Origin: Opitutales bacterium
Lineage (GTDB): Bacteria > Verrucomicrobiota > Verrucomicrobiia > Opitutales > T3Sed10-336
NCBI GenBank assembly: GCA_007130045.1
Contig: SLTG01000021.1
Coordinates: forward strand, 355-64,354
DNA: 64,000 nucleotides
Reading direction: 5' to 3'
The translations under genes were made by a program, and so were the position numbers. Below are positions 3,296 through 57,347 of the stretch, in pieces. The stretch's first letter is position 1; every line of letters starts with the position of its first letter. The notes under the pieces were generated by a model that had not been told where the DNA came from, ran no database searches, and was given only the letters and a program-made list of their open reading frames with translations.

Positions 3296-3386
3296 CCCGG
3301 ATTGTCCAAAAGGTCCTGAAACTTCTCCTGAATCCAATTCCGGAGTTGGAAATTCACGGAATTTTCGCGACTGTTTGTCCTTTTCA

Positions 3387-40558: not shown

Positions 40559-41842
40559 TCATTCGATGGTGAATGAATGAAACAGAAGGCGGTTCACCTT
40601 CGGCGCTTCGAAAACAAAACACAAATCCTCACGCCGGGCGTTTCCCGGAAGGTCGATGGTCAGTCTCCGGACTCCCTCCCCGGAGATCGCACCTCTGCCT
40701 TGTCCAAGGAGGACGCCGGAGGGATTATGACGACGGACGGAAACAACGGTTTCGCCCGGATTGCCTTTGAATTTCAGAATTAACCTGCGGGCTGAAGCCG
40801 TCGGCACCTCCACACGAGGGAAGGTAACGAATCCGCCCGAAACCGCAGGTCTCACAACGACACTGCCATCGTCGTCCAGCTCTTTCTCCACTTGATCCGC
40901 TGCAAAGTAATGACCGGCTGTGACGGCATGCCGCCCTGGAAAGTATTGGCCCACTCCCCAGGTTTGTATCCAGATGGGATCAATGTCGCCGCCGGGCAGG
41001 TAGTGAACATAGCTAATCCATGAACTCCGGAAATACCGGTTCCCCGAATGACTCATATCGCAATAGGTGAAATAGGACTGGTTGTGCCAGTCAAAGAAAG
41101 ATCCATGGCGGCCCTGCGTCGGTCCGTGAGGCCACGTTGGTTGCCGCATTTTGAAATCAATTCGTTCCGCACAGAGAAAACTTCCTTTGCACTGGTAGGG
41201 CCCCATCAGAGTATGGGACACGGCGTAATAACACCCCCAGGAAAGATAATAGAGTCCATTCCTCCGATGAAGAAAAACTTTATCATCGGTCTTCCCCTTC
41301 CCGTAGGGACCTTCCGGATCCAGGATCTCCAATCTGCGTGGCGCTTCAGCAATCCCCGTCATGTCGTCAAGCAACGGAGCGATATAATAATCCCAAACGC
41401 CAAAGATGATGTAAATTCGACCATCGTCGTCCTTGAAGAGTGCGGGGTCGTAAACTTCCGTGGGAACGATGCCGTTCTTGAGAAAAGGCCCCTTAAGATA
41501 GTCCTTCCATGGGCCACCCGGACGCTCCCCCACGACAACTCCGATCTGACGACGATCCTCCTGGGGCACGACTTCGGAAAAGAACCAGTAGTAGCGCCCC
41601 TTGTGCTCGACCGCGTCAGTCGCCCAACAACCTTGTATCGGCTTGCCGATGTAGGTTTGCTCAGGCTTCAGAGTCGATTCCAACGACCAATCGAGAAGAT
41701 TGTCCGAAGACCAGACCTGCCAGTCCCGCATGTCAAAGCGAGTGTTGGCCCGATCAAAATCATGAGAGGCGTAAAGGTATGCGCGGTCCCGGAAAATGCG
41801 AATGTGAGGATCGGTAATTCCGGCGTCGGGCAAGTTCATCAA
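40559..41842 (-). CDS. GH43 family glycoside hydrolase with C-terminal CBM6-like domain
   Basis: ITDPHIRIF..RAYLYASHD, CWATDAV, YDPALFKDDDG.IY and YYLSW, followed by a C-terminal beta-sandwich. Confidence 0.85.
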   Translation of the reverse strand: MMNLPDAGITDPHIRIFRDRAYLYASHDFDRANTRFDMRDWQVWSSDNLLDWSLESTLKPEQTYIGKPIQGCWATDAVEHKGRYYWFFSEVVPQEDRRQIGVVVGERPGGPWKDYLKGPFLKNGIVPTEVYDPALFKDDDGRIYIIFGVWDYYIAPLLDDMTGIAEAPRRLEILDPEGPYGKGKTDDKVFLHRRNGLYYLSWGCYYAVSHTLMGPYQCKGSFLCAERIDFKMRQPTWPHGPTQGRHGSFFDWHNQSYFTYCDMSHSGNRYFRSSWISYVHYLPGGDIDPIWIQTWGVGQYFPGRHAVTAGHYFAADQVEKELDDDGSVVVRPAVSGGFVTFPRVEVPTASARRLILKFKGNPGETVVSVRRHNPSGVLLGQGRGAISGEGVRRLTIDLPGNARREDLCFVFEAPKVNRLLFHSFTIE

Positions 41843-41909
41843 GGACCAATGGATTGATAACAGTGGCTAATTCGGTTGAAGCGGAATTTCTTACTCTTTT
41901 ACAGATGGG

Positions 41910-43277
41910 TTATTTCGCGGCCTTCAACATCTCTTCCAGTCGCTTGCGCATCTCCTCGAGTTCCCTGGCATAAGCGGGGTTGTCCACTTGATTCGTCTTC
42001 TCCGTTGGGTCCACCTGCAAGTCGAAAAGCTGTTCGTAGTCCCACTCCGGCCAATAAGCGTATTTAAGGTCCCGGCGCACAACAGCCTGTGATGCGGGTA
42101 TGCGGTTCTTGTCAGTGATGGTTGGATGTTCATACAAGAATTCATCGCGCCAACCCGAAGGATCATCGACAAGGTAAAGCCGAGCCAGATCTTCGCCCTG
42201 GATCCCCTCGGGAACAGTCAGTCCGGCGGCGGCGAGAATGGTAGGCGCCAAGTCGATGTTCAACACCATTTCATCCCGCTTGATCCCACGTTCCTCCGCC
42301 GGCAAACGGGGGTCGTACACAATCAGGGGTACGCGGATGGACTCCTCATACGGATACCACTTATCAGCCAGCCCGCGATCGGCGTGAAAGTAACCATTGT
42401 CTCCCATGAAAATGATCAACGTGTTTTCGTACACCCCCTGATCTTTAAGCTCGGTGACGAGCCGGCCGACCGCTTCATCAAGCTCCGTGATCAAACGAAA
42501 GTAATTGGTCATGTATTCCTGGTATCGCTCCGGCGTATCAAAGCGCCAGTGGAAGCGGATGCGGCCCTCGTTGGACTCCTGGGAGAGAAATTCCGGCAGC
42601 GCTTCAAGATATGATGGGGCCATTTTCACCGACTCGGGTATCGTCACCCCTTCGTAGTATTTGGCGCTCCAATCCTGAGGCAGGTATTGCTCCGGCGCCC
42701 GGTCTTCAGCGTGGGGGGCAAAATAGGACAGGCTCAGGATAAACGGCTGACCGGTTGGGCGTTCTCTGAGAAACTCAAGCGAGTCCTGCGCGTTTCGCTC
42801 GGTGACGTGAATACGTTCTCCGTCGATTTCATACCAATGACGGCCATGATACGAACGGACGAAATCAAAGTCGTCTTCTCGAATGGAGCCGACATGATAT
42901 TTCCCCACAAACCCACTCCAATAACCGGCGGACCGCATGACCGCGGGATACGTCTCGGAAAACGCCTTCGGGGCAAGCTCCTTGCCGAACCGGTCGATCC
43001 CGTGCCGCGACATGTACTGGCCGGTTAGAATCGATGCCCGGCTGGTCATGCAGATGCTGGTGGTGACAAACGCATCGGTAAAATGCACGCCGGTTTCCGC
43101 GAGTCTATCCAGGTGTGGCGTGTGAATAAATTCGCTTCCCCCGGCGCCGAACGCGTCCCAACGCTGATCGTCCGAAACCAGGACCACGACATTCATCGCC
43201 TCGGAACTTGCTTTGCCGCCGCAAACGCACGCGGTTACAGCCGTTGCGAGCAGAGTGAGAGCAGACAGTTTCTTCAT
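41910..43277 (-). CDS. Sulfatase (S1, Cys-type)
   Basis: SDDQR, TPHLDRLA, SICMTSRASILTG, GKYH, APH, GDNG and YEESIRVPL. Confidence 0.93.
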   Translation of the reverse strand: MKKLSALTLLATAVTACVCGGKASSEAMNVVVLVSDDQRWDAFGAGGSEFIHTPHLDRLAETGVHFTDAFVTTSICMTSRASILTGQYMSRHGIDRFGKELAPKAFSETYPAVMRSAGYWSGFVGKYHVGSIREDDFDFVRSYHGRHWYEIDGERIHVTERNAQDSLEFLRERPTGQPFILSLSYFAPHAEDRAPEQYLPQDWSAKYYEGVTIPESVKMAPSYLEALPEFLSQESNEGRIRFHWRFDTPERYQEYMTNYFRLITELDEAVGRLVTELKDQGVYENTLIIFMGDNGYFHADRGLADKWYPYEESIRVPLIVYDPRLPAEERGIKRDEMVLNIDLAPTILAAAGLTVPEGIQGEDLARLYLVDDPSGWRDEFLYEHPTITDKNRIPASQAVVRRDLKYAYWPEWDYEQLFDLQVDPTEKTNQVDNPAYARELEEMRKRLEEMLKAAK

Positions 43278-43283
43278 GATTGA

Positions 43284-44681
43284 TTATTCTCCTTTTTCGT
43301 TCGGCATTTCCCCGTCCAACGGGAGCCAGGTGTCGATGCGGCGCGACAGATGCCTCACACGCTCCGGTTGTTCATCCGCGAGATTGTTCTTCTCGTGCGG
43401 ATCATCTTTTACATTGTACAATTCGATCCCCTCATGCACAGCAACAATCGAATCTCCGACGAAAACTTCAGGAGCAAGGCCGGGGTCGGGCAGGATCAGC
43501 TTCCAGTCCCCCTCGACAATCCACCGATAATAGAGTCCCTTGAGCGGTTCGTCGATCGGAGCCGGCATGTCGTGCCCGTATATGTCTCCAAACACAGCAT
43601 CTCTCTCCTCCACCGCCCTCCGATTCAGCAGATCGATTCCCTGCGAATCAGCCGATGGCTCCAGCCCCGCCGCCCGCAAAATCGTCGGTTTCAAGTCGAT
43701 GCTGCCGGCCAGGTTTTCCTCGTCCCTAAAGGGTTTCACCTTTCCCGTCCAGCGGACCATAATCGGCGTTCGCACGCCTCCTTCATGCGGACTGCGCTTC
43801 GATCGCGGAGCGTATCCCTCCTGTCGCCAATCCTCCGGCAGCCCCTCCATCTCCGGTGTGAGCTGGATCCACCCGTTGTCACAAACATAAAGAATGACGG
43901 TGTTGCCGCCCATCCCGTTCTCATCGATGTAATCGACCAACTGGCCACAAGTTTCATCGAACCACTCGACCATCGCATAATACCGGGCCAGTTCCATCGG
44001 CCTGCCCTCAAGCATATACTTATTCAGCAGGCGCTCCGGCGGGTTGTGTGGCGTGTGCGGCAGGAAGGGAGCGTACCAGACGAAAAAGGGCTTCTCCTCT
44101 CCCGCGGCATGCTCGATGAATTCAAAAATCGGCTCCATTCCATCCCGGCCAATCCTCAACCCCGCATCGCCATGCCGGGCTCCGCGGGCGGGATCGCCGT
44201 GTGTCATCCCGTGCGTGAACCCGCCGACGCTGTAATTGCCTTCCCACCACTTGCCTGACTGATGCGAAAGGTACCCCTCCTCCCCCAACCGCCGCGCGAT
44301 TGTCGGCAGTTCCGCCATGCGGTCAACATACGGCTGGTTCGCCTTCGGACGTCCACCCGAGGCGCGCCGCGCCTCAGGATCGGGGTCATTGCCCGTGATT
44401 CCGTGCTCGTGCGGATACATCCCCGTCGCGATCGACGCCAGCGACGGCCGGCACAGACTTGAGGGCACATAACCTCTCGTCATCAACAGGCTCTCCTCCG
44501 CCAACCGGTCCAGGTGCGGGGTTTGAATGTGCTCGTGACCCATAAAACCATAATGCCACCAGGACTGGTCATCGGAGATAATCAGCACGATATTCGGCCG
44601 ATCCGCGGCTTCCGCTTCGCTCACTAAGCCGAAGACGATCAAAAACGACAAGGAAACACCTGCACGGCAAAGGTTTATCAT
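43284..44681 (-). CDS. Sulfatase (S1, CxPSL variant)
   Basis: RPNIVLIISDDQ, LCRPSLASIATG, GKWWEG, PHTPH, CDNG and EGGVRTP. Start placed at ATG 44681 because it gives a signal peptide. Confidence 0.9.
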   Translation of the reverse strand: MINLCRAGVSLSFLIVFGLVSEAEAADRPNIVLIISDDQSWWHYGFMGHEHIQTPHLDRLAEESLLMTRGYVPSSLCRPSLASIATGMYPHEHGITGNDPDPEARRASGGRPKANQPYVDRMAELPTIARRLGEEGYLSHQSGKWWEGNYSVGGFTHGMTHGDPARGARHGDAGLRIGRDGMEPIFEFIEHAAGEEKPFFVWYAPFLPHTPHNPPERLLNKYMLEGRPMELARYYAMVEWFDETCGQLVDYIDENGMGGNTVILYVCDNGWIQLTPEMEGLPEDWRQEGYAPRSKRSPHEGGVRTPIMVRWTGKVKPFRDEENLAGSIDLKPTILRAAGLEPSADSQGIDLLNRRAVEERDAVFGDIYGHDMPAPIDEPLKGLYYRWIVEGDWKLILPDPGLAPEVFVGDSIVAVHEGIELYNVKDDPHEKNNLADEQPERVRHLSRRIDTWLPLDGEMPNEKGE

Positions 44682-45045
44682 AAAATCAGGTCTGTACAAG
44701 ACAGGCGTCATCAACAAAGTACTCCGAATAATTAACGATATGAGCGTTTCACTTCCCATTCATCAAATCGGCTAGTGAATCGCGCCATGCTTCCACATTC
44801 AAACAAATAACATACCCCTTCAGTCATTTCGCGGTATTTTCATTCACATCATCGGATTTTTCACTTCCAGTGTCTAATCTGAAATTTCATATTCACGCGC
44901 CATCGTGCCAGCCCTTCGCTGATTCACGGTCGACCGTCACGGTGGATACCGGTAAAAATCGCGGCAGTGGCACGGACTATTTCCATATGCCGTCATTCGA
45001 ATCGGGGCAATAAGGCGGGAATCATGGAACAGAAAGAATGTTGCA

Positions 45046-45262: not shown

Positions 45263-46891
45263 ATGAAATTATCCTTTTGCACCGTCCTCTTGGCGATCGT
45301 CTGCGGCGCCCTGCTTTTCCATCCTTCCACGAAGGCATCCGCCGCCGTGGCCAGCCCCGATTACGAAAGGGAGAATTGGCCCGAAGTCCCCAAGCTGGTC
45401 TGGGCCAAGCCCGGTGAAAGCGGCGACTTCAACGATCCCGCAAACTGGCTGAAGAATGGGCAAGTATCCACTCGGGCGCCCGACCGCGACACGGATGTCG
45501 TCCTTCCTCCCGCACCGGGGCGATACCGCGTCAACGCCGGGCGCGATCGCGAAGTCCGCCATCTCACGGTCGGCGAAAACGCCGAGATTCGGGGCGTACA
45601 CCGCAATGAGCTGGAAATATGGGGCAATGCCTGGGTGAAGGATGGAGGCTGGGTGGAATACATCTCCATTCGTGGGCCGAAGAATACCTTTTTCCGGATG
45701 GACAGCGCCGAGTTTCCGACGAAGGAGAACGGCCTCACCTTTCTCGGCGGGCGATCCCGGACGTCCAAACCGCAGAGTCGTGGCCGGATCTCGCACAAAT
45801 TCGAGATCGCCAAATACGGCGATGGTTCGGTGGAGCTCATTGGCAACATCGGGGTTGGCGATGAGATCATGGTGCAGCACGGAAGAGCGATCATAAGCGG
45901 CGAGCTCCGCTGGTCGGGCGTAACCGACAAAGGCGCTATCGAGGTTTTCGACGGCGCGGTTCTCGAATTGCAGTCCGGCGCCACGATCGCGCCATTCCTA
46001 AGCAAGAACGGTAAAAACGTGTACAACGTCAACATCTACCGCGGCGGCATGCTTCAAGGGGGCTCGCCCGAACGCCCGCTGACCTCCGACGCCTACGTCC
46101 GGCTCGGCTACGGCTCCGACAACTCCGTGCAAGGCGAAAGCGGTCTCTTCGCCGCGCGAGGCTCGATTATCCGGGTCCACAGCAGCGATCCCGAAAACGC
46201 GCGGCTTGTCTTCCCCTCGATCACCGGCACGCCGGGATTCCACGACGGCGACGGCAATCTCCTCGCCGATACTGAAACTCCCGCCCGCGGCCCCGGCGGC
46301 ATCGTGCTCGACCTCGCCGGTGATGTCGATTTGCACGGAGCCTTCTTCGATTACGTCAGCGAGGGCGGAATTCGCCTTATTAACGCGGAAGTCCGCGACC
46401 AGTGGCGCGAGGTTGAATTTGGCGAGAATAACGCCGGTTCGCCCGACCGGCTGTTTGCCCAGCTCGAGGTGGATGCGGACGTCTATTATCATGAGCGGCT
46501 CGACGGCGCGAGCGAGTTCGCGCTGACGAGGAGGGCGCGGCAGACAATGGACGAGTTCATTCAACAACAGGATCCCTATCGGATCTCAGTCTCGCCCGAA
46601 TCCGTCCAAATGGGGGAAGCCTTTGATCCACACCGCGGTGGACGCACGTTCAAAAGGCCGGAGGCTGTCATCTTTAAAGACCCCATCGAGGTTTCCATCG
46701 AGGTCGAGGTTCCGGGAGCCGCGATCCACTACACAACCGACGGATCGGAAGTCTCACACGAGTCTCCCCGTTACACCGAACCGCTGCGGATCGAGCAAAC
46801 GACCCGCCTTAATGTCCGCGCTTACGCCGAAGGCAAATCCCCGAGCATGCCGGCCGCCTTCACTTATGTTTTCGAGGATGAAACCGATTAA
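45263..46891 (+). CDS. Secreted protein with C-terminal Fn3-associated/CHB_HEX_C-like domain
   Basis: Signal peptide, WAKPGESGDFNDPANW motif, a beta-rich body and C-terminal AAIHYTTDGSEV...YTEPLRIEQTTRLNVRAY. Confidence 0.8.
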   Translation: MKLSFCTVLLAIVCGALLFHPSTKASAAVASPDYERENWPEVPKLVWAKPGESGDFNDPANWLKNGQVSTRAPDRDTDVVLPPAPGRYRVNAGRDREVRHLTVGENAEIRGVHRNELEIWGNAWVKDGGWVEYISIRGPKNTFFRMDSAEFPTKENGLTFLGGRSRTSKPQSRGRISHKFEIAKYGDGSVELIGNIGVGDEIMVQHGRAIISGELRWSGVTDKGAIEVFDGAVLELQSGATIAPFLSKNGKNVYNVNIYRGGMLQGGSPERPLTSDAYVRLGYGSDNSVQGESGLFAARGSIIRVHSSDPENARLVFPSITGTPGFHDGDGNLLADTETPARGPGGIVLDLAGDVDLHGAFFDYVSEGGIRLINAEVRDQWREVEFGENNAGSPDRLFAQLEVDADVYYHERLDGASEFALTRRARQTMDEFIQQQDPYRISVSPESVQMGEAFDPHRGGRTFKRPEAVIFKDPIEVSIEVEVPGAAIHYTTDGSEVSHESPRYTEPLRIEQTTRLNVRAYAEGKSPSMPAAFTYVFEDETD

Positions 46892-46957
46892 TCCCTCGAT
46901 TCCTAAGCGACCGTGGCCTTGCCCGGATCGTTTCGCATACTTTGCGGGAGAATTCCA

Positions 46958-48967
46958 ATGACAACGAATGTTAGAACCGTCCTTTCCGTCCTGCTTTTTT
47001 CAGTGCTCGCGCATTTCCCGTTAAAGGCGGTAATCAACGTCGGCCTGCAGCCGGCAGACCTCTTCGAACGTTACGAAACCGTCCTTACCGGCGAAATCGA
47101 ACGGGTGGACGAGGAAGCCGGCGGCTTTTTCCTGCGGGTGACCGCGTTACACAAGGGCGAAACCCCGGAGGTCGGCGAGATCATCGAAATCTCGGCGGTA
47201 GACGCCATGGCAGAGGCTCTCGCGGACCAGGTGGACCCGATCGTCGACATCGCTCCCGGCAAGCCAGTCGCCGCCTTCGTCGGCATGCGCCAGCGCCGGG
47301 CCGAGGACCAGCTGCTCTTCTACGCCGGGGGCTTCTACCTCGGCACCCGGGTGTCGGATTCGCGATGGAACTGGACCGATGGAGACACTCAAATGACCGG
47401 CGTGGACGGCCAACCCGTGCCGACGATGGCCGGGACTTGGAACGGATCGACGCCTCAACTGAATCACATGCTTGAGGATTTGGCCCGCGGCGAAGCGTAT
47501 TTCCCCCGGCGCGGATACGCCGCGTTTAAGGAGGACATTCTGATCGACCAACTTGATGACACCGTGCGGGGCATCGCACTTTACGATCTATATGGCAATG
47601 GGCTTCCCGACATCTACGTCTCCTCGCCCGACGGCGATCGCGTGTACCTGCAGATGGCGCCGCTCGAATTTATCGACGCCACGGAATGGCTTGGCCTCGA
47701 GCAGGCAAGCGTGAGCATCGACGTTGCCGACTTTGATCTCGATGGCATCCCCGATTTGCTCGTCGGCGGCACCCTGCTCCGCGGCTCCGCCAACAGATCA
47801 GGGCAGCACGGCTTCACGCCCGTGGAGTCTTTCCCGCACGACGACGAGGAACGGGCCGCGCTCAAGGCCGCGGCGTTTATCGAAGCTGACGGGGACGGCT
47901 ACCCTGATGTCATCGTATCCCTCGAAGGAGGCGGTTTGCGTCTCTACCGCAATCCGGGCGAATCCGGCGGAGCTTTCACGGATATCACCGAGCATGCCGG
48001 CCTGGACCGGACGGAAGCCGGGGCCGGTGGCAACGGCTATTTCACGCTCGGCGATTGGACCGGGGACGGCCGAACCGATATCCACTACGCCGCCGGGCCA
48101 GGATTTCTGTTGATTCAGGATAGTGAGGGTCGCTTCGCGCCGCATCCGGACATGCCGGAATTGCGTTTCACGTCCGGCCCGGATGATGCACCCGGTCTGA
48201 CCGGCGCCGGCGCCTTCGCCCCGATCATCGGCTCCGGCCGGTTCGATCTCATCATCCCCGTGGCGAGCAGCTGGCATGTGATCGAGAATCGCAATGGCCA
48301 GCCGATCGACGTCACCGAGTACGGCAACGAGATCAACGAAGGTTCGTTTCTGCACCTTTCCACCGTCGCTTCGGACCTCACCCTGGATGGCAATGTGGAC
48401 ATCTATACGATCAGTCGCGCCCAGTACGGACACAACCGATTCATCATCAATCGCGGTTACGGCTCATTTATGCTCGCTACCGTGCATCGCGCTTACGACA
48501 AGATGTTCTCCGGTCCGTCGCAGGAACTGGGGGGCTGGGCTCTCGCGACCGGGGATGCCAATGGCGATGGGCAACCCGATATTCTGCTCGGCAACGAACA
48601 CGGACATGTGGTTCTCATTTTGAACGACACGCTGTCGTATCGAGAACCGGTGGAGCACCCGACCGACGACGTCGCGCGTATGCTCCAGGCAGGCGTACTC
48701 GCCGTCACGGTTGAAGGCCCGCGCGGCGTCGTCGGCGCCATCGTCCAGCTCGAAACTCCAGAGGGTGCCACAGTCGATATGCGGTTCATTGGTGGCAATA
48801 ACGCAGCCGGCAGCCGAGGCCCTGACGAGGCCATCTTCGGCGTGCGTAAGCCCGGCGACTACCTCGTTCGCGTGCGCTACGCCGACGGCCACGAACGCAC
48901 CTGGCCGGTGGAGATTTCGCCCGCAACCCAGGCGATCGCGCGCTTGACGGCAACTCGATCCGACTGA
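46958..48967 (+). CDS. FG-GAP/VCBS-repeat protein with ASPIC/UnbV-like C-terminus (CRTAC1-like)
   Basis: RBS GGGAG before ATG 46958 and a signal peptide. Repeated Ca-binding-type DxDxDGxxD motifs (DFDLDGIPD, EADGDGYPD, DWTGDGRTD, DLTLDGNVD, DANGDGQPD). C-terminal GVVGAIVQL...AIFGV...VRVRYADG. Confidence 0.85.
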   Translation: MTTNVRTVLSVLLFSVLAHFPLKAVINVGLQPADLFERYETVLTGEIERVDEEAGGFFLRVTALHKGETPEVGEIIEISAVDAMAEALADQVDPIVDIAPGKPVAAFVGMRQRRAEDQLLFYAGGFYLGTRVSDSRWNWTDGDTQMTGVDGQPVPTMAGTWNGSTPQLNHMLEDLARGEAYFPRRGYAAFKEDILIDQLDDTVRGIALYDLYGNGLPDIYVSSPDGDRVYLQMAPLEFIDATEWLGLEQASVSIDVADFDLDGIPDLLVGGTLLRGSANRSGQHGFTPVESFPHDDEERAALKAAAFIEADGDGYPDVIVSLEGGGLRLYRNPGESGGAFTDITEHAGLDRTEAGAGGNGYFTLGDWTGDGRTDIHYAAGPGFLLIQDSEGRFAPHPDMPELRFTSGPDDAPGLTGAGAFAPIIGSGRFDLIIPVASSWHVIENRNGQPIDVTEYGNEINEGSFLHLSTVASDLTLDGNVDIYTISRAQYGHNRFIINRGYGSFMLATVHRAYDKMFSGPSQELGGWALATGDANGDGQPDILLGNEHGHVVLILNDTLSYREPVEHPTDDVARMLQAGVLAVTVEGPRGVVGAIVQLETPEGATVDMRFIGGNNAAGSRGPDEAIFGVRKPGDYLVRVRYADGHERTWPVEISPATQAIARLTATRSD

Positions 48968-48973
48968 AATCCA

Positions 48974-50617
48974 ATGGTACCCGACATCACACCGCAGCTC
49001 GCGGTAGTTCCGATCCTCATCAACGCCGGTGCGGCGGCGCTGCCCGCCCTGATTGCGGGCGTAGCCAGTGTGGCCGCGCTCATCTTTAAGCCGCGCCAAC
49101 TCGTGCGCGCCTGTCGCCGGCATCCCGGTCGCGCTCTTGGCGTGTTGTTCGGAATCGCGGGGCTTACCGCCTTGATCGCATTCTGGCCGGCTGGTGATGC
49201 AACGGCTACAGGTACGGGGCGCCCGGCCACTTCCGCCAGCGCCTCCACCACCGATTGGACGCGTGTCGCGCTCGAAATCATCCGCGAGGAACAGCGCCGG
49301 CAATCCCGCGGACCCGCAGTGACGCAACAGGTTTCGGCTAACGCCGAAGGCGGCACGGTTGACGTCGCGACCAGCGACGTTGACGCCCAGCCCGCAATCT
49401 TCCGTGGCGGCATCGAACGCACGGGGTACGCCGGAGGTCCGGCACCCCTCGGCCTGCAACCGCTCTGGGAATACGAGGAGCCATTCGCGATGTTCCTCTC
49501 CTCGCCGATTGTTCATGCCGATCGGGTCTATGCCGCATGGACCCTGCTGGATCCGCCAAACAGCTATGGCGGCCTGATCGCTCTCGATGCCGCAACCGGT
49601 GACCTGCTCTGGGAGATCGACGAGCGCGACGACGGAGAACCCTTCGTAGGCATCTTCAGCTCCCCCGCGGTCAGTGCCGACGGCCGCTACGTCGTGATCG
49701 GCCAGGGTCTGCACTATGATGCGAACTGCGACTTGATCTGCGTTGACACACAGACGGGTGAAATCAAGTGGGTGGCGCCAACGCTCCTCCACCTCGAAAG
49801 TTCCCCGGCGATTTATGGCAACCTGGTGGTCATCGGCGCGGGCGCCATCGAAGTGGGCAGTGACCGCCAACCGGAGGGACATCCGGGGTACGTGTTGGCG
49901 GTGGATCTCGAAACGGGCCGCGAGGTTTGGCGGCACGACATCGCGGATCCCGAAAGTTCCCCCGCCGTGATCGACGGCATAGCCTATATCGGAAGCGGAT
50001 TCAACGGCAACGCCGTCGTCGCCCTCCGCACCGAGTCTGAAGATGCCTTGCAGGCCAGTGGAAAGGACCGTGAGCTCTGGCGGCGCGACACCCCCTATCC
50101 CGCCCTGGGCCCGATCACGATCGCTGGCAATCTCGTGCTTGCCGGCTGCGGGAATGGAGATTTCGTCTTTAGGGCGCAGAATCCCGCTGGCGCCGTGCTC
50201 GCCCTCGATCGCGATAACGGTGAGGTTCGCTGGGAAACCGCACTGCCCGATACGGTGCTTGGTGCCATTGCCGTGCGCGACAACCTTGCCATCTGCCCGG
50301 TGCGTAACGGCGAGGTCATCGCCCTTGATCTCGACGATGGTGCCATCGTCTGGCGCCAACGGATCAACGGCTCCGCCGCCATTCTCGGCGGTCCCGCGGT
50401 CACCGAGGATCTCGTTTACGCGGTCAGCCAGGATGGTTATCTCGCCATCCTGGAGTTGCAGGATGGCTCCGTGCTGGAAAGACACTATTTGAACTCCGAA
50501 AGGCGGCCGGGCACACTCGGGCTGTCGGTAAGCTCACCCTTCGTGAGCGACGGCCGCGTTTATATCGGCAGCGAAACCGGCGGCTTGCGCGCCTTCGACG
50601 GAAGCACGTCACGGTGA
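48974..50617 (+). CDS. Membrane-anchored PQQ-like (BamB-type) beta-propeller protein
   Basis: Two N-terminal hydrophobic segments, FRGGIERTG and repeated SSP..../ALDxxTGxxxW blades. Confidence 0.88.
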   Translation: MVPDITPQLAVVPILINAGAAALPALIAGVASVAALIFKPRQLVRACRRHPGRALGVLFGIAGLTALIAFWPAGDATATGTGRPATSASASTTDWTRVALEIIREEQRRQSRGPAVTQQVSANAEGGTVDVATSDVDAQPAIFRGGIERTGYAGGPAPLGLQPLWEYEEPFAMFLSSPIVHADRVYAAWTLLDPPNSYGGLIALDAATGDLLWEIDERDDGEPFVGIFSSPAVSADGRYVVIGQGLHYDANCDLICVDTQTGEIKWVAPTLLHLESSPAIYGNLVVIGAGAIEVGSDRQPEGHPGYVLAVDLETGREVWRHDIADPESSPAVIDGIAYIGSGFNGNAVVALRTESEDALQASGKDRELWRRDTPYPALGPITIAGNLVLAGCGNGDFVFRAQNPAGAVLALDRDNGEVRWETALPDTVLGAIAVRDNLAICPVRNGEVIALDLDDGAIVWRQRINGSAAILGGPAVTEDLVYAVSQDGYLAILELQDGSVLERHYLNSERRPGTLGLSVSSPFVSDGRVYIGSETGGLRAFDGSTSR

Positions 50618-53600
50618 TGAGCGATTCACCCTGGATTCTCCCGCTCACGTTGGCGCATGACGTGAGTTTGGTCGGCGGTAAAGCATCGAATCTCGCCCAA
50701 CTCATCAACTCCGGTCTCCCGGTTCCATCGGGGTTCGCCATTACCACCGCTTCCTTCCATGCGTGGTGCGATGCCGGAGACAATGGTATTCCAGAACCGG
50801 TCCGCGAAGCGATGATCGCCGCTTATCGCACGTTGGGCGGGCCGCAGGTCGCGGTGCGCTCTTCCGCGACAGCCGAGGATGGCAAGGAAGCCTCCATGGC
50901 TGGACAATACGAGACGATTCTCGGCGTGGAGGGCGAGGACGCGCTGTGCGCGGCGGTTTGTCGCTGCTGGCAGGCGTCCGACTCAGCCCGCGTCACGCAC
51001 TATCTCGCGAAGCATGCCCCCGGCATCGAGACGGTTTCGCTCGGACTTGTCGTTCAGCCCATGATTTCAGCCGATGCGGCGGGCGTGCTCTTCACGGCGA
51101 ATCCCCGCAATGGGCGCCGTAACGAGATGCTGCTTGAAGCCGCCTGGGGACTTGGCGAAGCTGTAGTGTCGGGGAAGGTCCAACCCGACGTTATCACACT
51201 GGATCACGACACCGGGCATGTGCTCGACGCGTCGATCGCGGAAAAGTCCGCGACATACGATCCCGCGACCGGCGAAATGAGCCCGCTTCCCCCTGAGCGG
51301 CGCTCGGTACCGGTCCTCGGCAGCGCCGATGTCGCGGCGCTTGCGCGTTGGGGCCGGCGCGTTGAAGATATCTTTGGCGAACCTCAGGACATCGAGTGGG
51401 CACTCCATCGTGGCCGCGTTTACCTCCTTCAATCTCGGCCCATCACCACGCTGGCGATTGCCGCGGCGCGTGAGGAGACACTGAACGAAACACGCGCCCG
51501 ACTGATTACCGCCCTCGAAACGGGACAGGGTCCTTGGATCGTGCATAACCTGGGCGAGACGGCGCCTCGGCCTACTCCGCTAACATGGACCGTTTTGCAG
51601 CGGTTCATGTCCGGGCAGGGTGGATACGGAAACCTCCAGCGCAAAGTGGGTTTCACTCCCGGTCCGTCCGTCGAGCGTGAAGGGTTCCTCGATCTGATCG
51701 GGGGGCAGATTTATATGGACGTTAGCCGCGGTCCCGAAATGTTCGGCGCAGGTTTTCCGTTTCACTACGATATCGAAAAGCTGCGGGCGGATCCGGATGC
51801 GGCAAATGGGCCGCCGACTCTGCCCGCGGGATCGATCGCGGCATTGTGGCGGGCAGGCCGGGTTTCCCGCTCGGTCGAACATCGCCTCGAAACGTATGCC
51901 GCCGATTTCGATCACCGGCTCGAAAGCGACATCATCCCGGCATTTGCAGCCTGGGTCGCGGAAGAGCGGAAGCGCGATCCGACGAAGCTCAGCCCGGCTG
52001 AATGGATCGATCTCTGGCGCATTCGCGAACAGCGGACCATGGACGACTTTGCTTCCAGCGCTCTGCTGCCGAGCGTGCTTTGCGTCTGGACGACGGACCG
52101 CTTTCGGCAATTCCTCGAGACCCGTTTTTGGGACGACGAGCCGGACGCCCTCCTGGCCACGCTCTCCGTCCCCGTCCGCCACGATTCCACTATCAAATCG
52201 AACTCAGGTTTGTGCGAGTTGGCCGAGGGCCGGAACAGCCTCGAAAACTGGCTGGGAGAGCATGGTCATCGTGCGCCGGAGGAGTTCGAACTCGCGACGC
52301 CCCGCTGGTCCGAACGGCCTGAAGCCATTGCCGGACTGGTTGAGCACATGCGCGGCCGCGAGGATCCGGCGATGCGGCATGACCAGCGCCAGCAAGCGGC
52401 GCGGGATTGTCTCGCCTCCCTTTCGCGGCGCCTCTCTTCCCGCGACTCCGCCACGCTCCAGACCCTGGCCGACCGGCTTTCGCGTTACCTGCCTTACCGC
52501 GAAGACGGGAAGCACCACCTGATGCTCGGCTATGGCCTGCTGCGCGATCTTGCCCTGGAAGCCGCGCGCCGTCTCGACCTCGACGCGGAGGTTTTCCTGC
52601 TTACGCCCGCGGAGATCGAGCACGCGCTTGAAACCGGCTACGCGCCTCACCACCTTATCAACGAGCGTCGCCTGCGCCGGGAAGCTGAGAAAGAGCTCGC
52701 ATTGCCGACACTGCTGACGCGCTTGGAAGTCGAGAATATAGGGGACCCGCCGCCCGTGGATTTCACTGTGGAACGATGGAAGTCAGTACCGCTCGCCGGA
52801 GGTCGCGGGAGTGGACCCGTGCGCATCCTGAACGCGCCGGATCAGATTGACGCGGGCGAGCGTGGCTTCGTCCTCGTTTGTGCCACAACCGACCCGGGAT
52901 GGACGCCGCTCTTCGCGAGCGCCGAGGCCGTTGTTGTGGAGCGTGGCGGCAGCTTGTCGCACGGCGCGGTCGTCGCGCGCGAAATGGGTGTGCCGGCCGT
53001 GACCTTGCCGGGAGCGACGCGGCTGTTGCGCGAGGGCGAAACGGTCACCGTCGATGGCCGGCATGGCTGGGTCGCACGCGGCGCCCCGCCTTCGTCCGCT
53101 TCTGACGAGGCTGGTGCAGCGGATGACGAGCCAATCCCCCGCGAACTCCAGCCACCGCCCCCCGGCGACGGCGAGGAGCAGGCCGCACGCTGGCGCCGTA
53201 TTGGTTTTTCCGTTTGGGGCGTGTTTCTTGCCGCCTTTTTCCTGCTCCCTGCGCCGTGGCTTCAGTACCCGGCAATCCAAACAGTGGACCTGCTCCTCTG
53301 GCCGCTGGTGGCCACCTGGGGCAAAGTGGCAACGGTCGCGATTCTCGCCGCGGTCACGGCCACTGTAATACTGGTCGGCCAGCGCGTGCTCAACGACCAT
53401 GCACGGCTCGTAATCGCCAAGCAGCGCTGGCAGCGACTGCAGGCCCGGGCCCGGACGTTGCCCGAGGACGCCCCGCGACGGAAACAACTGCTCGCCTGCG
53501 GCGCGGGAGTGCAGAAGCGCCTGACTCTCGCGGCGTTTACTCCCCTCGCCATCCTGCTGGGGCCGATGGTGCTTTCGTTCATGTGGCTTATGGAACGGAT

Positions 53601-54228
53601 CGATCCGCTCGCCTGGAATCCATCGCCCGGCAGCAGCGCCGCGATCGTGGCGCTGGTCGATGGCGACCATCTTGAGCCGCTGACCATCGAGCTTTCCGAC
53701 TCGTTGCAACTCGCCCCCCATAGCTCTTTCGAGCAACAGGTGCCGCCCGTGCGCGAAACCCTTGAAGCGCTTCGGCAGCGCTGGCAGGCCGCGCCCTCGG
53801 GCGACAACAGCTTGCCTTGGGATGTTCGCGCCGCCGCCAGGCGCACACGTGCCGAGTTGCTTGACGACTTGCGCTCCTTCCTTGCGCAGCCGGTGCCGCC
53901 GCAAACGGTTGCGTGGACTGTTGATCTCCCGGAGGAACGGGGACGGTTTCCTGTTGTGATCCGTACAAGCGGAATGGATCCCGTCCATTTCAACCTTCTC
54001 GCCGGGGACGCGGCTCCCCCTTCGCCACCCATCGCATTCACGAGCGAGTCAGCGCCTATCCGCGAACTCAGCGTCGAATACCGCGAAGCCCGCATTCAAG
54101 ATGACCGAGTGTTCGCGACTCCGTTTTCTCGTTTCGGATGGGCTTGGGACGTGGGCTGGCTCGGCGTCTATCTGCTCGTCTATCTCCCTGTCATGGTCGT
54201 CGTGCGGCGCGCGCTGCGACTGCCGTGA
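50617..54228 (+). CDS. PEP-utilising-family dikinase (rifampicin phosphotransferase/PigC architecture) fused to a DUF106/EMC3-like membrane domain
   Basis: ATP-grasp motifs VGGKASNL, VAVRSSATAED..EASMAGQYET, WGLGEAVVSG, PQDIEW and LQSRPITT. Central RPH-like domain (HGHRAPEEFELATPRWSE). Phospho-His domain TDPGWTPLF..GGSLSHGAVVARE. C-terminal TM/coiled-coil/TM...GWLGVYLLVYLP. The ATG overlaps the upstream stop (TGATG). Confidence 0.9.
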   Translation: MSDSPWILPLTLAHDVSLVGGKASNLAQLINSGLPVPSGFAITTASFHAWCDAGDNGIPEPVREAMIAAYRTLGGPQVAVRSSATAEDGKEASMAGQYETILGVEGEDALCAAVCRCWQASDSARVTHYLAKHAPGIETVSLGLVVQPMISADAAGVLFTANPRNGRRNEMLLEAAWGLGEAVVSGKVQPDVITLDHDTGHVLDASIAEKSATYDPATGEMSPLPPERRSVPVLGSADVAALARWGRRVEDIFGEPQDIEWALHRGRVYLLQSRPITTLAIAAAREETLNETRARLITALETGQGPWIVHNLGETAPRPTPLTWTVLQRFMSGQGGYGNLQRKVGFTPGPSVEREGFLDLIGGQIYMDVSRGPEMFGAGFPFHYDIEKLRADPDAANGPPTLPAGSIAALWRAGRVSRSVEHRLETYAADFDHRLESDIIPAFAAWVAEERKRDPTKLSPAEWIDLWRIREQRTMDDFASSALLPSVLCVWTTDRFRQFLETRFWDDEPDALLATLSVPVRHDSTIKSNSGLCELAEGRNSLENWLGEHGHRAPEEFELATPRWSERPEAIAGLVEHMRGREDPAMRHDQRQQAARDCLASLSRRLSSRDSATLQTLADRLSRYLPYREDGKHHLMLGYGLLRDLALEAARRLDLDAEVFLLTPAEIEHALETGYAPHHLINERRLRREAEKELALPTLLTRLEVENIGDPPPVDFTVERWKSVPLAGGRGSGPVRILNAPDQIDAGERGFVLVCATTDPGWTPLFASAEAVVVERGGSLSHGAVVAREMGVPAVTLPGATRLLREGETVTVDGRHGWVARGAPPSSASDEAGAADDEPIPRELQPPPPGDGEEQAARWRRIGFSVWGVFLAAFFLLPAPWLQYPAIQTVDLLLWPLVATWGKVATVAILAAVTATVILVGQRVLNDHARLVIAKQRWQRLQARARTLPEDAPRRKQLLACGAGVQKRLTLAAFTPLAILLGPMVLSFMWLMERIDPLAWNPSPGSSAAIVALVDGDHLEPLTIELSDSLQLAPHSSFEQQVPPVRETLEALRQRWQAAPSGDNSLPWDVRAAARRTRAELLDDLRSFLAQPVPPQTVAWTVDLPEERGRFPVVIRTSGMDPVHFNLLAGDAAPPSPPIAFTSESAPIRELSVEYREARIQDDRVFATPFSRFGWAWDVGWLGVYLLVYLPVMVVVRRALRLP

Positions 54229-54312: not shown

Positions 54313-55815
54313 TTAGCCTGATCTCCGAAATGCATAATCTCTAAGTCGCTTCCACCAACTGGTCCGGCTTCCCAGCGAAATGATGATTGCCAGCAGAAAG
54401 AGCAGCGCAAAGGGCCTGGTCATAAATGGCAGCAGCGACCCGTCATGAACCGTAAGGGCACGGCGCAGGTTCTCGTCGAGGAGGGGCCCAAGGATCAGCC
54501 CGAGAATCAGCGGAGCCGCGGGATATTTCATTTCGGTGAGCAGGTAATAAATCAGACCGATCCCCAGCATGATCCAGACGTCAAACAAGCTGAGGTTCAA
54601 CGAATAGGCCCCAATCACACAGAGAACGGCGATGATCGGCATAAATATCCCGCGCGGAATGCTGAGGGCCTTTGCCACCACTCGCGTCAGCAACAAACCC
54701 CACGCCGACATGATGCAGGCGGCCACCAGCAGCATGGCGCCGATCTGGTAGATGAACCCGGGTGACTCGACGGCAAGCATCGGGCCGGGTCTGATCCCGT
54801 GCAGCCACAGCGCGCCCAACAGTACGGCGGTCGGTGGACTGCCCGGCACGGCAAGTGTCAACAGCGGGATCAACGCTCCGCCAATGGCCGCATTGTTGCC
54901 GGTCTCAGCCGCCAGAACCCCTTCATAAGAACCTTTGCCAAACTCCTCCGGATGTTTGCTTAACTTCCGCGCCACCCCGTAAGACCCCCAACTCGCAATG
55001 TCCTCCCCTACTCCGGGAATCGCCCCGATGCTTGTGCCGACGGCTCCCGAACGGAGCGAGGCCGGAATCAGTTTCTTGAAGTCCTTCCAGGTGGGAAGGA
55101 TGCGTCCTGATTCAGCAATTACCACGTGCTTCGCATCCGGGGTTTTCATCGTCCGGATAATTTGCGGGATTCCGAAAACCCCAATCATAGCCGGCACCAG
55201 GGCTATTCCTGTCAACAGCATCGGCGTCTCAAAGGTGAACCGAGCGTATCCGTGGAGGGGATCGATACCGACCGTTGAGAGCAGAATTCCCAACACCCCG
55301 GCGATCCATCCCTTGATCGGCCAATCCTGCGAGGTAATCGAACCACAAATCAAAATGCCGAACAACGCGAGCAGAGAAAATTCCACGGCGGTGAATCGCA
55401 GGGCCAACCGGCTGATCCAGGGCGCCAATGCCATGAGAATAATCAGCCCGAAAATCGTCCCCATCAGAGATCCAACAGTCGCGTAGCCCTTGGCCCTCCC
55501 TCCTTCCCCTTTGAGCGCCAATGGATACCCATCCATAGCCGTGGCCGCTGCGGAAGCGGTGCCCGGTATGTTCAACATGATCGCCGTAAACGAACCGCCG
55601 TAAATAGCTCCCACGTAGATCCCCAGCAGAACAATCAACGCCGCCTGCGTATCCAGTCCGTAGGTCACTCCCGTCAACAACGCGATGGCCAGGGTTGCCG
55701 TCAAACCGGGAAGCGCTCCGACCAGGATCCCCAGTACCGTGGCTCCGGCGAAGATCAGCAACGTCATCGGCGTCAATAACGCCAGGACTTCTTTGAAGAA
55801 TGTTACGATCTCCAT
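54313..55815 (-). CDS. tctA: Tripartite tricarboxylate transporter large permease
   Basis: GALPGL, YGGS..AIMLNIPGT, DGYPLA, ETGNNA, PLLTLAVPGS and GIRPGP. Confidence 0.95.
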   Translation of the reverse strand: MEIVTFFKEVLALLTPMTLLIFAGATVLGILVGALPGLTATLAIALLTGVTYGLDTQAALIVLLGIYVGAIYGGSFTAIMLNIPGTASAAATAMDGYPLALKGEGGRAKGYATVGSLMGTIFGLIILMALAPWISRLALRFTAVEFSLLALFGILICGSITSQDWPIKGWIAGVLGILLSTVGIDPLHGYARFTFETPMLLTGIALVPAMIGVFGIPQIIRTMKTPDAKHVVIAESGRILPTWKDFKKLIPASLRSGAVGTSIGAIPGVGEDIASWGSYGVARKLSKHPEEFGKGSYEGVLAAETGNNAAIGGALIPLLTLAVPGSPPTAVLLGALWLHGIRPGPMLAVESPGFIYQIGAMLLVAACIMSAWGLLLTRVVAKALSIPRGIFMPIIAVLCVIGAYSLNLSLFDVWIMLGIGLIYYLLTEMKYPAAPLILGLILGPLLDENLRRALTVHDGSLLPFMTRPFALLFLLAIIISLGSRTSWWKRLRDYAFRRSG

Positions 55816-56298
55816 CTAAGGAAGGGGAATTCGCGCCAAATGTTCGAATACAATGCCAATGGCGGTGGAAACAATCGCCGAGATCGAAAGAATCTTCCAC
55901 CATGCCGTCGCCTTGAAGAGGAACATAAAGGCCACCAGAAATAAAAAACTGGCCAAAATGAAATGAACGCGCCCGAGCAACCCGAATACATAGACCATGA
56001 GAAGAAGGGCGGCCAGAGCGCTTCGTCCGGAAGCCGGATCGGCGATCGCTGCCTTCAGCCGCGAAAAATCCTCGTGCTTCCAGGCTCCTCCTTCCTGAAA
56101 AGCGTGGAATGAAAGAGCGCTGCCCAGCAAAAACAGGACGATCGCGGCGGCGGCGGGCACCAGCCCCGGAGCCGTGTACCACCCGTCACGTTGAACGACG
56201 CTCAAATCCCAGCCAAGCTTGAGGCTCAGCGCGAATGCCGCCAACCCCAACGCGGCCAGCATAATGCCTGTAATGAAATCCGCTTTGCGCAACCACAT
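55816..56298 (-). CDS. tctB: Tripartite tricarboxylate transporter small permease
   Basis: 4-5 TM segments, APGLVP and C-terminal FEHLARIPLP; abuts tctA. Confidence 0.85.
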   Translation of the reverse strand: MWLRKADFITGIMLAALGLAAFALSLKLGWDLSVVQRDGWYTAPGLVPAAAAIVLFLLGSALSFHAFQEGGAWKHEDFSRLKAAIADPASGRSALAALLLMVYVFGLLGRVHFILASFLFLVAFMFLFKATAWWKILSISAIVSTAIGIVFEHLARIPLP

Positions 56299-56315
56299 TG
56301 ATTTGTTCCGCGGAA

Positions 56316-57347
56316 TTACGGTCTGGCGATTCCATATCTCTCCGGCGAGTGCCGGGCAAGTTGCTCGTCGTATAGCAGCCAGGTCAGCCTGCTCTCTCTC
56401 TCGGCAAAAAGGGCGGACGCCTCCTCTCCCGAATAACCAAAAAGTTCGGAATGGCTCGCCTCGCCGAATTGTCTGATTTCATCCGAGTCCATGGCGCGCT
56501 TGAAGGCCCCCTCGATAGTCTCCAGAATTTCCGCAGGGGTATCCGCCGGCAAAGCGAACCCGATGTACTGGCGGAGCGGAAAATGATCCTTTAACTCAGG
56601 GAGCGGTCCGCTAATCGGCGGCAGTTCGCCGATTCCTTCGTATCGACGCGGCTCCGTCTCCATGACGGCAAGAGGGCGGAGGTGTCCGGACCGCAGGAGT
56701 TCGACCTGTTCGCCCAGACCGGTCAGGACTACATCCACTTCGCCGGATAGGGCCGCCACCTGCGACGGATGACTTCCCGGATAGGAAATCCAGCGGACCT
56801 GCAACCCGGCCGCCTTCGACATAACGAGGTATTGCTCGTGCCAGACGGTTCCGGGAAATGCCGAAGCCATTCGGATTTGGTTCGGCCGGTCGCGAATAGC
56901 CGCAATCAGCTCCTCCAATGTATGATAGGGAGAATCAGCCGGTACCGACAAAATTCCCGGAGTCCCGCAAATCAGGAAGTAGTGCCAGTCCCGCGAGGTG
57001 GTCGAGTGAGCGCCGAACACCGGCATGGCCAGAGCGCCCTCCGACATGCCAAACCAGGTATGTCCGTCACGCCGGGCATTCCATACATGATTCGCCGCCG
57101 AACCGCCCTGGGCTCCGGGTATGTTGAGCACGGATATGGTCGCGCCCAGTTCTCTTTCCATCACGTTCGCCATCGTTCGATTGGCCAAGTCCGTCGATCC
57201 GCCGGGCGAAGCAAACACGGCAACATTAATTGTTTTGCGCCCGGGCCATTCTCCGGCGTCCCGCCCGTTCGGTTCGGAATCGCATCCCCCGAGAAACAGG
57301 CCAATAAATAGGGTGGTTATTACAATGTAATGGGAGAGCGTTTTCAT
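56316..57347 (-). CDS. tctC: TTT substrate-binding lipoprotein (Bug/TctC)
   Basis: Lipobox LGGC, WPGRKTI..VFASPGGSTD, NIPGAQG, DGHT and ALSGEVD. Confidence 0.9.
   Translation of the reverse strand: MKTLSHYIVITTLFIGLFLGGCDSEPNGRDAGEWPGRKTINVAVFASPGGSTDLANRTMANVMERELGATISVLNIPGAQGGSAANHVWNARRDGHTWFGMSEGALAMPVFGAHSTTSRDWHYFLICGTPGILSVPADSPYHTLEELIAAIRDRPNQIRMASAFPGTVWHEQYLVMSKAAGLQVRWISYPGSHPSQVAALSGEVDVVLTGLGEQVELLRSGHLRPLAVMETEPRRYEGIGELPPISGPLPELKDHFPLRQYIGFALPADTPAEILETIEGAFKRAMDSDEIRQFGEASHSELFGYSGEEASALFAERESRLTWLLYDEQLARHSPERYGIARP

Follow-up and report, generated by a model that had tools for sequence, protein, structure and literature searches.

The closest described relatives of the genes considered here come from four different settings. 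Rifampicin phosphotransferase (RPH) of Listeria monocytogenes (5hv1, 5hv2, 5fbs) and the PRK06241-type dikinases, which include PigC and RedH, are built from an ATP-grasp domain, a central domain and a phospho-histidine domain in this order, and the chemistry of the RPH-type family converts ATP and an acceptor hydroxyl into AMP, inorganic phosphate and the phosphorylated acceptor. BamB (YfgL), an eight-bladed propeller of outer-membrane assembly, carries PQQ_2 repeats at an extracytoplasmic site. The phosphotransferase system (PTS) pairs the PEP-utilizers-type phospho-histidine domain of Enzyme I with an adjoining membrane component, EIIC. Finally, MJ0480 is an archaeal DUF106 protein, 'YidC-like protein 1' (Ylp1; solved as 5c8j); according to PMC5868721, the DUF106 group, with EMC3 and TMCO1 among its members, is found in archaea and eukaryotes, and MJ0480 is reported there to bind ribosome-nascent chains and to crosslink to a model substrate. 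The abstract of PMC11997395 presents YidC as an insertase and a lipid scramblase, and that of PMC8887752 reports a swap between EMC and Oxa1. Here, we analysed four genes, A to D, in a 64,000-nucleotide stretch of DNA from an Opitutales bacterium (Verrucomicrobiota; contig SLTG01000021.1, positions 355 to 64,354; hereafter 'the window'), and found that the last of them encodes an RPH-like dikinase fused to a membrane module very probably homologous to the DUF106/Oxa1 superfamily, and that this gene is constantly accompanied by gene C, which encodes a membrane-anchored BamB-like propeller. Each domain of the system comes from a known superfamily, but taken together the four genes correspond to no type of system described so far. 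The four genes are arranged as follows, all as called from the open reading frames (ORFs):

45263-46891, + strand: gene A, with a product of 542 residues
46958-48967, + strand: gene B, counted from an ATG; an alternative in-frame GTG lies at 46913
48974-50617, + strand: gene C
50614-54228, + strand: gene D, counted from a GTG, product of 1204 residues; an alternative ATG lies at 50617

The junctions, read directly from the sequence, bear out the co-oriented arrangement, the coordinates and the spacings given in the original prediction that drew attention to the locus. The TAA of A (46889-46891) is followed after 66 bp by the ATG of B (46958), the TGA of B (48965-48967) after 6 bp by the ATG of C (48974), and C and D meet in a TGATG, in which the TGA of C (50615-50617) shares its A with the ATG of D (50617). 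The same prediction had described two signal peptides, one N-terminal anchor and a large loop of D on the side of the membrane opposite to the kinase, all in agreement with the translations and the charge distribution, and it was right that no polyketide synthase, non-ribosomal peptide synthetase or transporter gene lies inside the A-D cluster. Its general picture of a cytoplasmic kinase joined to a membrane domain with an extracytoplasmic loop is also supported. Its term 'trans-envelope' lacks support, as no outer-membrane component was found.

What is the membrane-borne part of D? This C-terminal part, which is the most informative feature of the locus, appears to be an Oxa1-superfamily (DUF106) module and not a plain anchor. 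D is divided into the following parts:

50614-51483, + strand: residues 1-290, ATP-grasp nucleotide-binding domain (PPDK_N; from Pfam and the RPH alignment)
51484-52833, + strand: residues 291-740, central helical domain, family-specific and presumed to bind the substrate (RPH alignment)
52834-53079, + strand: residues 741-822, swivelling phospho-histidine domain (PEP-utilizers; Pfam and H783)
53080-54225, + strand: residues 823-1204, membrane module, a transmembrane helix TM0 plus a DUF106/Ylp1-type core of TM1, cytoplasmic coiled-coil hairpin, TM2 and TM3 (profiles and AlphaFold2 (AF2))
53614-54114, + strand: residues ~1001-1167, predicted periplasmic immunoglobulin-like (Ig-like) beta-sandwich between TM2 and TM3 (AF2 and VIA)

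The translation contains four hydrophobic helices beyond residue 850, the last two of which are separated by ~180 residues, and the distribution of positive charges places this loop and the kinase on opposite sides of the membrane. The predicted topology thus runs from a cytoplasmic kinase through TM0, a short outer loop and TM1 to a cytoplasmic coiled coil, and from there through TM2 to the outer Ig-like domain and back through TM3 to a cytoplasmic C-terminus. A profile of the C-terminal 380 residues of D, aligned from seven genomes (A3), matched MJ0480 with E 2.1e-9 and, at E <= 0.001, no other protein of solved structure. The main alignment, of profile positions 59-163 with MJ0480 residues 11-118, covers TM1, the coiled coil and TM2, and a weak second stretch (344-370 against 170-196) adds TM3 with its GWLG.Y motif in the correct order. 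An independent profile of 17 D sequences (A1) also recovered MJ0480, with E 1.6e-6, and the two profiles matched no other membrane protein. Motifs common to the module and MJ0480 are LD..f.P (TM1), D..R (where the coil begins), P......P.il.F.wl (TM2) and GWLG.Y (TM3); the cytoplasmic coiled coil is conserved. Independently, one homologue bears the name 'uncharacterized membrane protein (DUF106 family)' in the JGI source.

The order of TM1, coiled coil, TM2 and TM3 and the predicted topology are those of MJ0480 and of EMC3, TMCO1 and GET1. The module of D differs from MJ0480 in being bacterial, in its extra TM0, in a 165-residue Ig-like insert, in its position behind an enzyme of 820 residues and in lying below detection by Pfam PF01956. 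In the AF2 model of the module (pLDDT 79.1, pTM 0.66) helices occupy positions 30-55, 62-104, 107-125/132-141, 144-173 and 360-379 and a beta-sandwich positions 186-345. VIA finds the insert similar to Ig-like domains from GH2 enzymes and alpha-2-macroglobulins (Z 6.3-7.0). Since the housekeeping YidC is encoded elsewhere in the host genome, the module of D represents an additional Oxa1-type copy.

A query with the module against 1.84 billion representative proteins returned 386 matches at E <= 0.001, 124 of them at E <= 1e-30. The module did not occur alone among the 150 matches listed, which are either ~1200-residue proteins or shorter entries, and the five shorter entries that we checked, out of eight matches scanned, start inside PPDK_N or PEP-utilizers and are N-terminally truncated fragments. 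Judged from these sequences, the fusion of dikinase and module is universal among the matches listed. A search of the Atlas gave a top cluster with a score of 0.83, under the trust level of the tool; this cluster is labelled 'Fragment' and may consist of fragments of D's own family.

The cytoplasmic part of D is that of an RPH-type dikinase. Pfam places PPDK_N at residues 58-287 (E 2.3e-73) and PEP-utilizers at residues 749-818 (E 8.9e-21), both domains are present in 17/17 D homologues, and H783 as well as the GGK, VRSS and DIEW motifs are invariant across these sequences. The best solved relative of profile A1 is the Listeria RPH (5hv2, deposited as 'phosphoenolpyruvate synthase'; E 7e-129), matched over two stretches: positions 13-284, the ATP-grasp domain, align to RPH residues 24-331, and positions 532-821, the second half of the central domain with the histidine domain, to residues 572-875. 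Between these stretches, positions 285-531 of the profile, which make up the first half of the central domain, are unaligned. A query with the central domain (290-740) found 296 proteins at E <= 1e-5, and the best 120 of the 296 were all ~1200-residue fusions or fragments. We infer that PF27448, a precomputed label on two such fragments (P0177 and P0018) whose entry is not part of the Pfam set used, denotes this central domain.

Public names of D homologues range from 'PEP/pyruvate-binding domain-containing protein' and 'pyruvate, water dikinase' to 'rifampicin phosphotransferase'. In terms of sequence, D is a new subfamily with RPH architecture and not an orthologue of any of the named enzymes, because its scores lie far under every NCBIfam equivalog cut-off: 319.5 bits against 999 for Rph (NF041857), 279.9 against 1300 for PigC (NF052631), 301.6 against 1350 for RedH (NF052632) and 268.6 against 739.75 for PpsA (TIGR01418). 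No Pfam match to PEP-utilizers_C, the C-terminal PEP/pyruvate-binding TIM barrel of PpsA, was found in D, and no prodigiosin genes lie near the cluster. What sets D apart from all RPH-type enzymes is the 380-residue membrane module and the constant pairing with a membrane propeller. In the same genome, a second PPDK_N-containing open frame of at least 712 residues (G000:C47:1244-3382, L002) shares 28% identity with the ATP-grasp part of D.

With RPH as the closest solved relative, D could be a membrane-tethered enzyme that inactivates xenobiotics or antibiotics by acting on a toxin partitioned into the membrane, with the outer proteins binding or sequestering the toxin and no transport taking place. 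The Rph model of NCBIfam matches D with E 5.5e-95, some homologues carry the name of that enzyme in JGI, and the sporadic, horizontally exchanged distribution described below would suit an accessory resistance trait. On the other hand, the Rph cut-off is missed by a wide distance, the unaligned first half of the central domain corresponds to the drug-binding region of RPH, and three conserved extracytoplasmic proteins are odd company for a drug kinase. We consider inactivation improbable.

Gene C encodes a propeller with PQQ_2 repeats (Pfam), preceded by two hydrophobic helices with an Arg/Lys-rich loop between them:

48998-49186, + strand: residues 9-71 of C, hairpin of two membrane helices joined by a basic loop on the cytoplasmic side (alignment A4)

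In the alignment of 19 orthologues (A4), V11, P13, N17, G19, A28, P40 and P51 are invariant, helix 1 and the loop are unusually conserved, and helix 2 is followed by a DW..AL motif. Of the natural proteins among the 60 PDB matches listed, BamB comes closest (E 1.7e-20); the other matches are designed propellers and PQQ-type enzymes. We regard C as a BamB-like propeller that is held in the inner membrane by its highly conserved helical hairpin. It differs from BamB in this hairpin, which takes the place of a lipoprotein anchor (no lipobox is present at the N-terminus), in its genetic link to D instead of BamA, and in missing the equivalog cut-off of TIGR03300 (101.5 bits against 285.2). The model of PQQ-dependent dehydrogenases (TIGR03075) is likewise missed, with 63.1 bits against 480. 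The conserved motifs of the propeller were considered as an active site and rejected, as they recur once per blade and are thus structural repeats. A likeness of C to EMC1 was also rejected: Beta-prop_EMC1_N gives 18.1 bits against a cut-off of 34, and EMC1 is absent from the 60 PDB matches listed. On the strand opposite to C, a 673-residue open frame (48464-50485, - strand) is longer than C itself; given the 63-65% G+C content of the DNA, it is most likely a shadow ORF.

The proposal that the membrane propeller is the partner of D gains from its being an obligate neighbour, as set out below. A complex prediction for the membrane module of D with full-length C scored 0.51 (runs of 0.51, 0.52 and 0.44), while the best of three controls scored 0.00. 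The mark applied to this score is reached by 58/80 solved complexes and 2/110 mismatched pairs, and among those passing it a score <= 0.60 was obtained by only 7/80 solved complexes and by both passing mismatches. The runs agreed in at least 38% of contacts with a partner pLDDT of at least 77 and gave no interface. The modelled complex thus lends weak support to a physical pairing of C and D.

Both A and B begin with a signal-peptide-like segment. The AF2 model of A (pLDDT 85.9) consists of a right-handed parallel beta-helix (~40-404), a long helix and two beta-sandwiches, the last of which is the CHB_HEX_C_1/Fn3_assoc domain found by Pfam at residues 471-529. In VIA, adhesin passengers, polysaccharide lyases, epimerases and phage tailspikes were tied as look-alikes of A at Z 13-15, resembling only a generic beta-helix, and no enzyme class could be assigned; a Foldseek search of the PDB returned no match to the model at E <= 0.001. 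B contains FG-GAP_3 and FG-GAP (Pfam) and has no solved relative by sequence. An ASPIC/UnbV label had been attached to B as well, for which we found no basis, since UnbV_ASPIC is without a Pfam match in B at E <= 0.01. The beta-helix protein A and the FG-GAP propeller B very probably act as an accessory pair outside the inner membrane.

Do the four genes belong together in other organisms? In 401 genomes of the phylum, evenly drawn, the membrane module of D occurs in eight (G000, G008, G035, G036, G104, G165, G281, G377), with a ninth, weak match in a 283-residue frame (G350, E 4.9e-4). C (profile A4, E <= 1e-60) was found in exactly the same eight genomes and in 0/393 others. B (E <= 1e-30) was found in 6/8 D genomes and 0/393 others, with two candidates per genome scored, and the beta-helix part of A in 6/8 D genomes and one D-less genome (G020, at a contig start); other matches to A are confined to its common C-terminal domain. 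In one genome (G377), A and B lie together on a contig separate from C-D. A-B and C-D are thus two linked sub-modules.

A scan with profile A3, using one genome per GTDB species, yielded 33 loci, to which the four window proteins were then compared by tblastn. The loci come from Verrucomicrobiota, Kiritimatiellota (Pontiellaceae, Kiritimatiellales), Lentisphaerota and many Planctomycetota (Phycisphaerae, Tepidisphaerales, Thermoguttaceae, Brocadiaceae, Sedimentisphaerales). Of the loci that contain the start of D and 1.6 kb or more of the DNA ahead of it, 21/21 carry a full C as the next gene upstream, in the same orientation as D, and in three more (L034, L042, L045) the contig ends within C upstream of D, so that C and D are adjacent in 24/24 informative loci from several phyla. 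Uninformative for C were seven loci in which the 5' end of D is cut (L031, L039, L040, L044, L046, L047, L048) and two with tiny matches (L051, L052). The complete order A-B-C-D is found in ten loci (L020, L021, L023, L024, L027, L033, L035, L036, L038, L043) and B-C-D up to the contig edge in three (L022, L037, L041). In four loci A and B are nearby and rearranged: divergent upstream in L026, downstream on the opposite strand in L040 and L047, and downstream on the same strand in L042. The lineage of L028 carries B ~7 kb away, as seen in L018. These loci are not all independent, as five repeat contigs of L013-L018 and the pairs L021/L022 and L049/L050 are near-identical. Clustering of all ORFs of the loci yielded no fifth conserved gene. 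Outside the Planctomycetota-Verrucomicrobiota-Chlamydiota (PVC) group, fragments of the module were seen in bins labelled Anaerolineales (L040) and Bacillota (L048), which may reflect real transfer or binning errors.

In a maximum-likelihood tree from a quick search with 23 D proteins, rooted at the midpoint, the phyla are interleaved, and the D of the window groups with Brocadiaceae, Phycisphaeraceae and two Verrucomicrobiota bins (SH-aLRT 96); this interleaving suggests that members of the PVC group have exchanged D horizontally. The nearest homologues of D bear Opitutaceae names.

The association of the four genes is far above chance: their order is kept in other phyla and they co-occur across genomes. 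The neighbourhood comparison proposed in the original prediction therefore speaks for a joint system, and A, whose membership had been left in doubt, belongs to it as well, the A-B pair co-occurring with C-D without always being adjacent. A chance adjacency of unrelated neighbours with no joint function could appeal to the variable flanking genes and to the absence of A and B from some neighbourhoods, but it fails to account for the constant C-D adjacency, for a C/D pattern that is identical in the 401 genomes, for the confinement of B to D genomes and of the beta-helix part of A to these and one other, and for the overlap of the C stop with the D start; we give it next to no credence. The module is a conserved accessory unit of PVC-group bacteria.

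A few genes recur near C-D in some of these loci. A Metallophos (calcineurin-like) protein of ~670 residues, with no obvious signal peptide, is found in L025 (3770-5782), L028 (1481-3508), L029 (51-875) and L033 (11017-13116), mostly in loci without A and B nearby. Two near-identical Lentisphaeria loci (L049, 8990-9958; L050, 9367-10335) encode a secreted 322-residue protein with a C-terminal acylphosphatase domain. The Metallophos proteins (four loci) and acylphosphatases (two), together with the sigma factor genes described below (three), were considered as hints of a phosphorylated intermediate and set aside as too patchy.

We tentatively propose, giving the idea somewhat less than an even chance, that the role of the system is a transfer over the inner membrane coupled to the phosphorylation of an amphipathic or membrane-borne substrate. 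The cytoplasmic part of D would move the beta-phosphate of ATP onto H783, from where the phosphate would be passed to a hydroxyl of the substrate in the family-specific central domain. The Oxa1-like module would offer a lipid-exposed hydrophilic groove beside the active site, at which the substrate or its polar head could cross or enter the inner membrane, and C, with A and B where these are present, would capture or process the substrate outside. The net effect would be a group-translocation-like or flip-and-trap transfer through the inner membrane. By analogy, the logic of trapping by phosphorylation would be the same as in group translocation by the PTS. D differs from the PTS in its expected donor, which is ATP used via an ATP-grasp domain and not PEP, and in a membrane part that is Oxa1-like and not of the EIIC kind; HPr, EIIA, EIIB and EIIC are all missing from the cluster and its flanks.

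Several observations weigh against this proposal of phosphorylation-coupled transfer. Oxa1-family proteins are known for the insertion of proteins, not for the passage of small molecules. The DUF106 assignment rests on the profile matches to MJ0480, because Pfam PF01956 (EMC3_TMCO1) is not significant: it matched 0/17 full-length homologues at E <= 0.05 and only 1/7 module domains (E 0.0058), and it had no match in the window's own genome. Among 48,161 PDB chains compared with the module model by VIA, rank 1 did go to 7tut_8, the TMCO1 chain of the multipass translocon (Z 8.1, rmsd 4.0, 135 residues aligned), and Bacillus YidC (3wo7) reached Z 6.3 over 157 residues, but VIA rates values of this size as common among helical proteins; a Foldseek search of the PDB with the module model returned nothing at E <= 0.001. 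The weakness of the modelled C-D pairing counts here as well. A and B lie outside the fetched stretch in L025, L028, L029, L030 and L032, and L049 and L050 contain only a distant FG-GAP protein in place of A and B. In addition, one locus lacks the kinase altogether: L019 (genome G008, 2736-6934) encodes a C-like propeller of 576 residues followed by an 821-residue protein with the central domain and a DUF106-like module, in which no PPDK_N or PEP-utilizers match was found. Having lost both kinase domains and kept C and the module, L019 implies that phosphotransfer is not indispensable to the core function. Finally, contigs from an RNA library match all four genes, as listed further below, but may themselves be DNA and cannot prove transcription or a single transcript.

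The kinase-less locus also speaks for an independent function of the central domain, the membrane module and C, and transport or insertion would suit this better than signalling. Downstream of this locus, a sigma-54 activator containing PAS domains is encoded on the opposite strand. Could the system then be a dedicated machine for the post-translational insertion or assembly of membrane proteins, akin to EMC or GET, with the dikinase as a source of energy or regulation? Its clients might be the hairpin of C, whose N-terminus lies outside, or proteins of the envelope that the propellers handle. The module is very probably a homologue of MJ0480/Ylp1, for which PMC5868721 reports nascent-chain binding and substrate crosslinking. 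The conserved cytoplasmic coiled coil, a BamB-like propeller as obligate partner, the retention of module and C in L019 and the presence of the module in addition to the housekeeping YidC all fit such a machine. Its sporadic occurrence (8/401) and apparent horizontal exchange would, however, be atypical of core biogenesis machinery, and an enzyme of 820 residues ahead of the module together with a C-terminal tail of only seven residues leaves scant space for a ribosome to dock. The likeness of C to EMC1 stays below threshold as stated above, and we know of no dikinase that energises insertion. An insertase is, in our judgement, unlikely, though not negligible. A more far-reaching version, to which we attach little probability, would make the system a new class of energy-coupled translocase, the first bacterial member of the DUF106 branch, in which the ATP-driven swivelling of the directly joined dikinase, or else a phosphate placed on the cargo, powers insertion or flipping across the inner membrane and a propeller on the far side gives an EMC-like layout in PVC bacteria.

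In three loci (L024, 250-2051; L036, 452-2264; L043, 34-990) an extracytoplasmic function (ECF) sigma factor is encoded just upstream of A together with an anti-sigma factor of the FecR type that carries a CBM96 domain, which hints at a control by cell-surface signalling in some lineages. This would be in keeping with a receptor-type system, in which the propellers and the Ig-like insert sense a ligand and switch a dikinase acting on a soluble cytoplasmic target, while the membrane module serves as anchor and transmitter. The topology, with a large outer part and an enzyme inside, is sensor-like, and a PEP-utilizer enzyme may have a protein as its substrate, HPr in the case of Enzyme I. Against this stand the lack of any conserved cytoplasmic partner or regulator in the neighbourhood, a central domain of the small-molecule-binding RPH type, and the fact that the three core helices of DUF106 and the coiled coil have all been specifically kept, beyond the needs of a plain anchor. 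A receptor therefore appears doubtful to us.

The genes that flank the locus include two sulfatases, GH43, TctABC and GHL6. On the - strand at 40559-44759 lie GH43 and two sulfatases with SGSH_C, and on the + strand at 57543-59561 a GHL6/GH42-like protein. A complete TctC-TctB-TctA operon of a tripartite tricarboxylate transporter (54313-57347, - strand) is convergent with the 3' end of D; in the other loci it shows no conserved adjacency to the module. The sulfatases, GH43 and the transporter had earlier been read as hints at a glycan-related substrate, a suggestion that gains no support, as they are not conserved neighbours of the module; the glycan-degradation genes are typical content of the host group. 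A, B, C and D are all without a defence-system match in PADLOC. Promoter-like sites (3 against 2.0 +/- 1.5 in shuffles) and terminator-like sites (6 against 8.7) are no more frequent than expected by chance, and the junctions are free of both. The host assembly comprises 3.4 Mb in 146 contigs and is 96.7% complete.

Seven metagenome runs from soda lakes, salt lakes or alkali sediments hold 0.57-1.00 of the sampled words of the DNA. One RNA library, from the same sample as one of the DNA runs, contains contigs at 99-100% identity on all four genes, at the following positions:

45482-46009: in A
46965-47246 and 48600-48839: in B
48826-49029: across the B/C junction
49749-50113: in C
52363-52554: in D

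Many bins of the stretch are without coverage in this library, from which nothing follows. An apparent 3455-base 'joint' in one DNA run (X3) was discarded as probably foreign, since one of its sides comprises no more than 21 letters.

A literature search, which was in part poorly targeted, returned no description of a dikinase-DUF106 fusion or of DUF106 in PVC bacteria. The four genes occur in at least one cultured strain, Haloferula chungangensis CCUG 61920 (locus L038), and thus present a defined experimental target. In summary, we found a very probable DUF106 fold, which PMC5868721 describes as archaeal and eukaryotic, in bacteria and fused to an ATP-consuming phosphotransferase. If the two halves of this protein work together, they would represent a new coupling of chemistry to membrane passage and a new substrate class for RPH-type dikinases. 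The finding also bears on how Oxa1-type modules have been recruited and exchanged between the domains of life.

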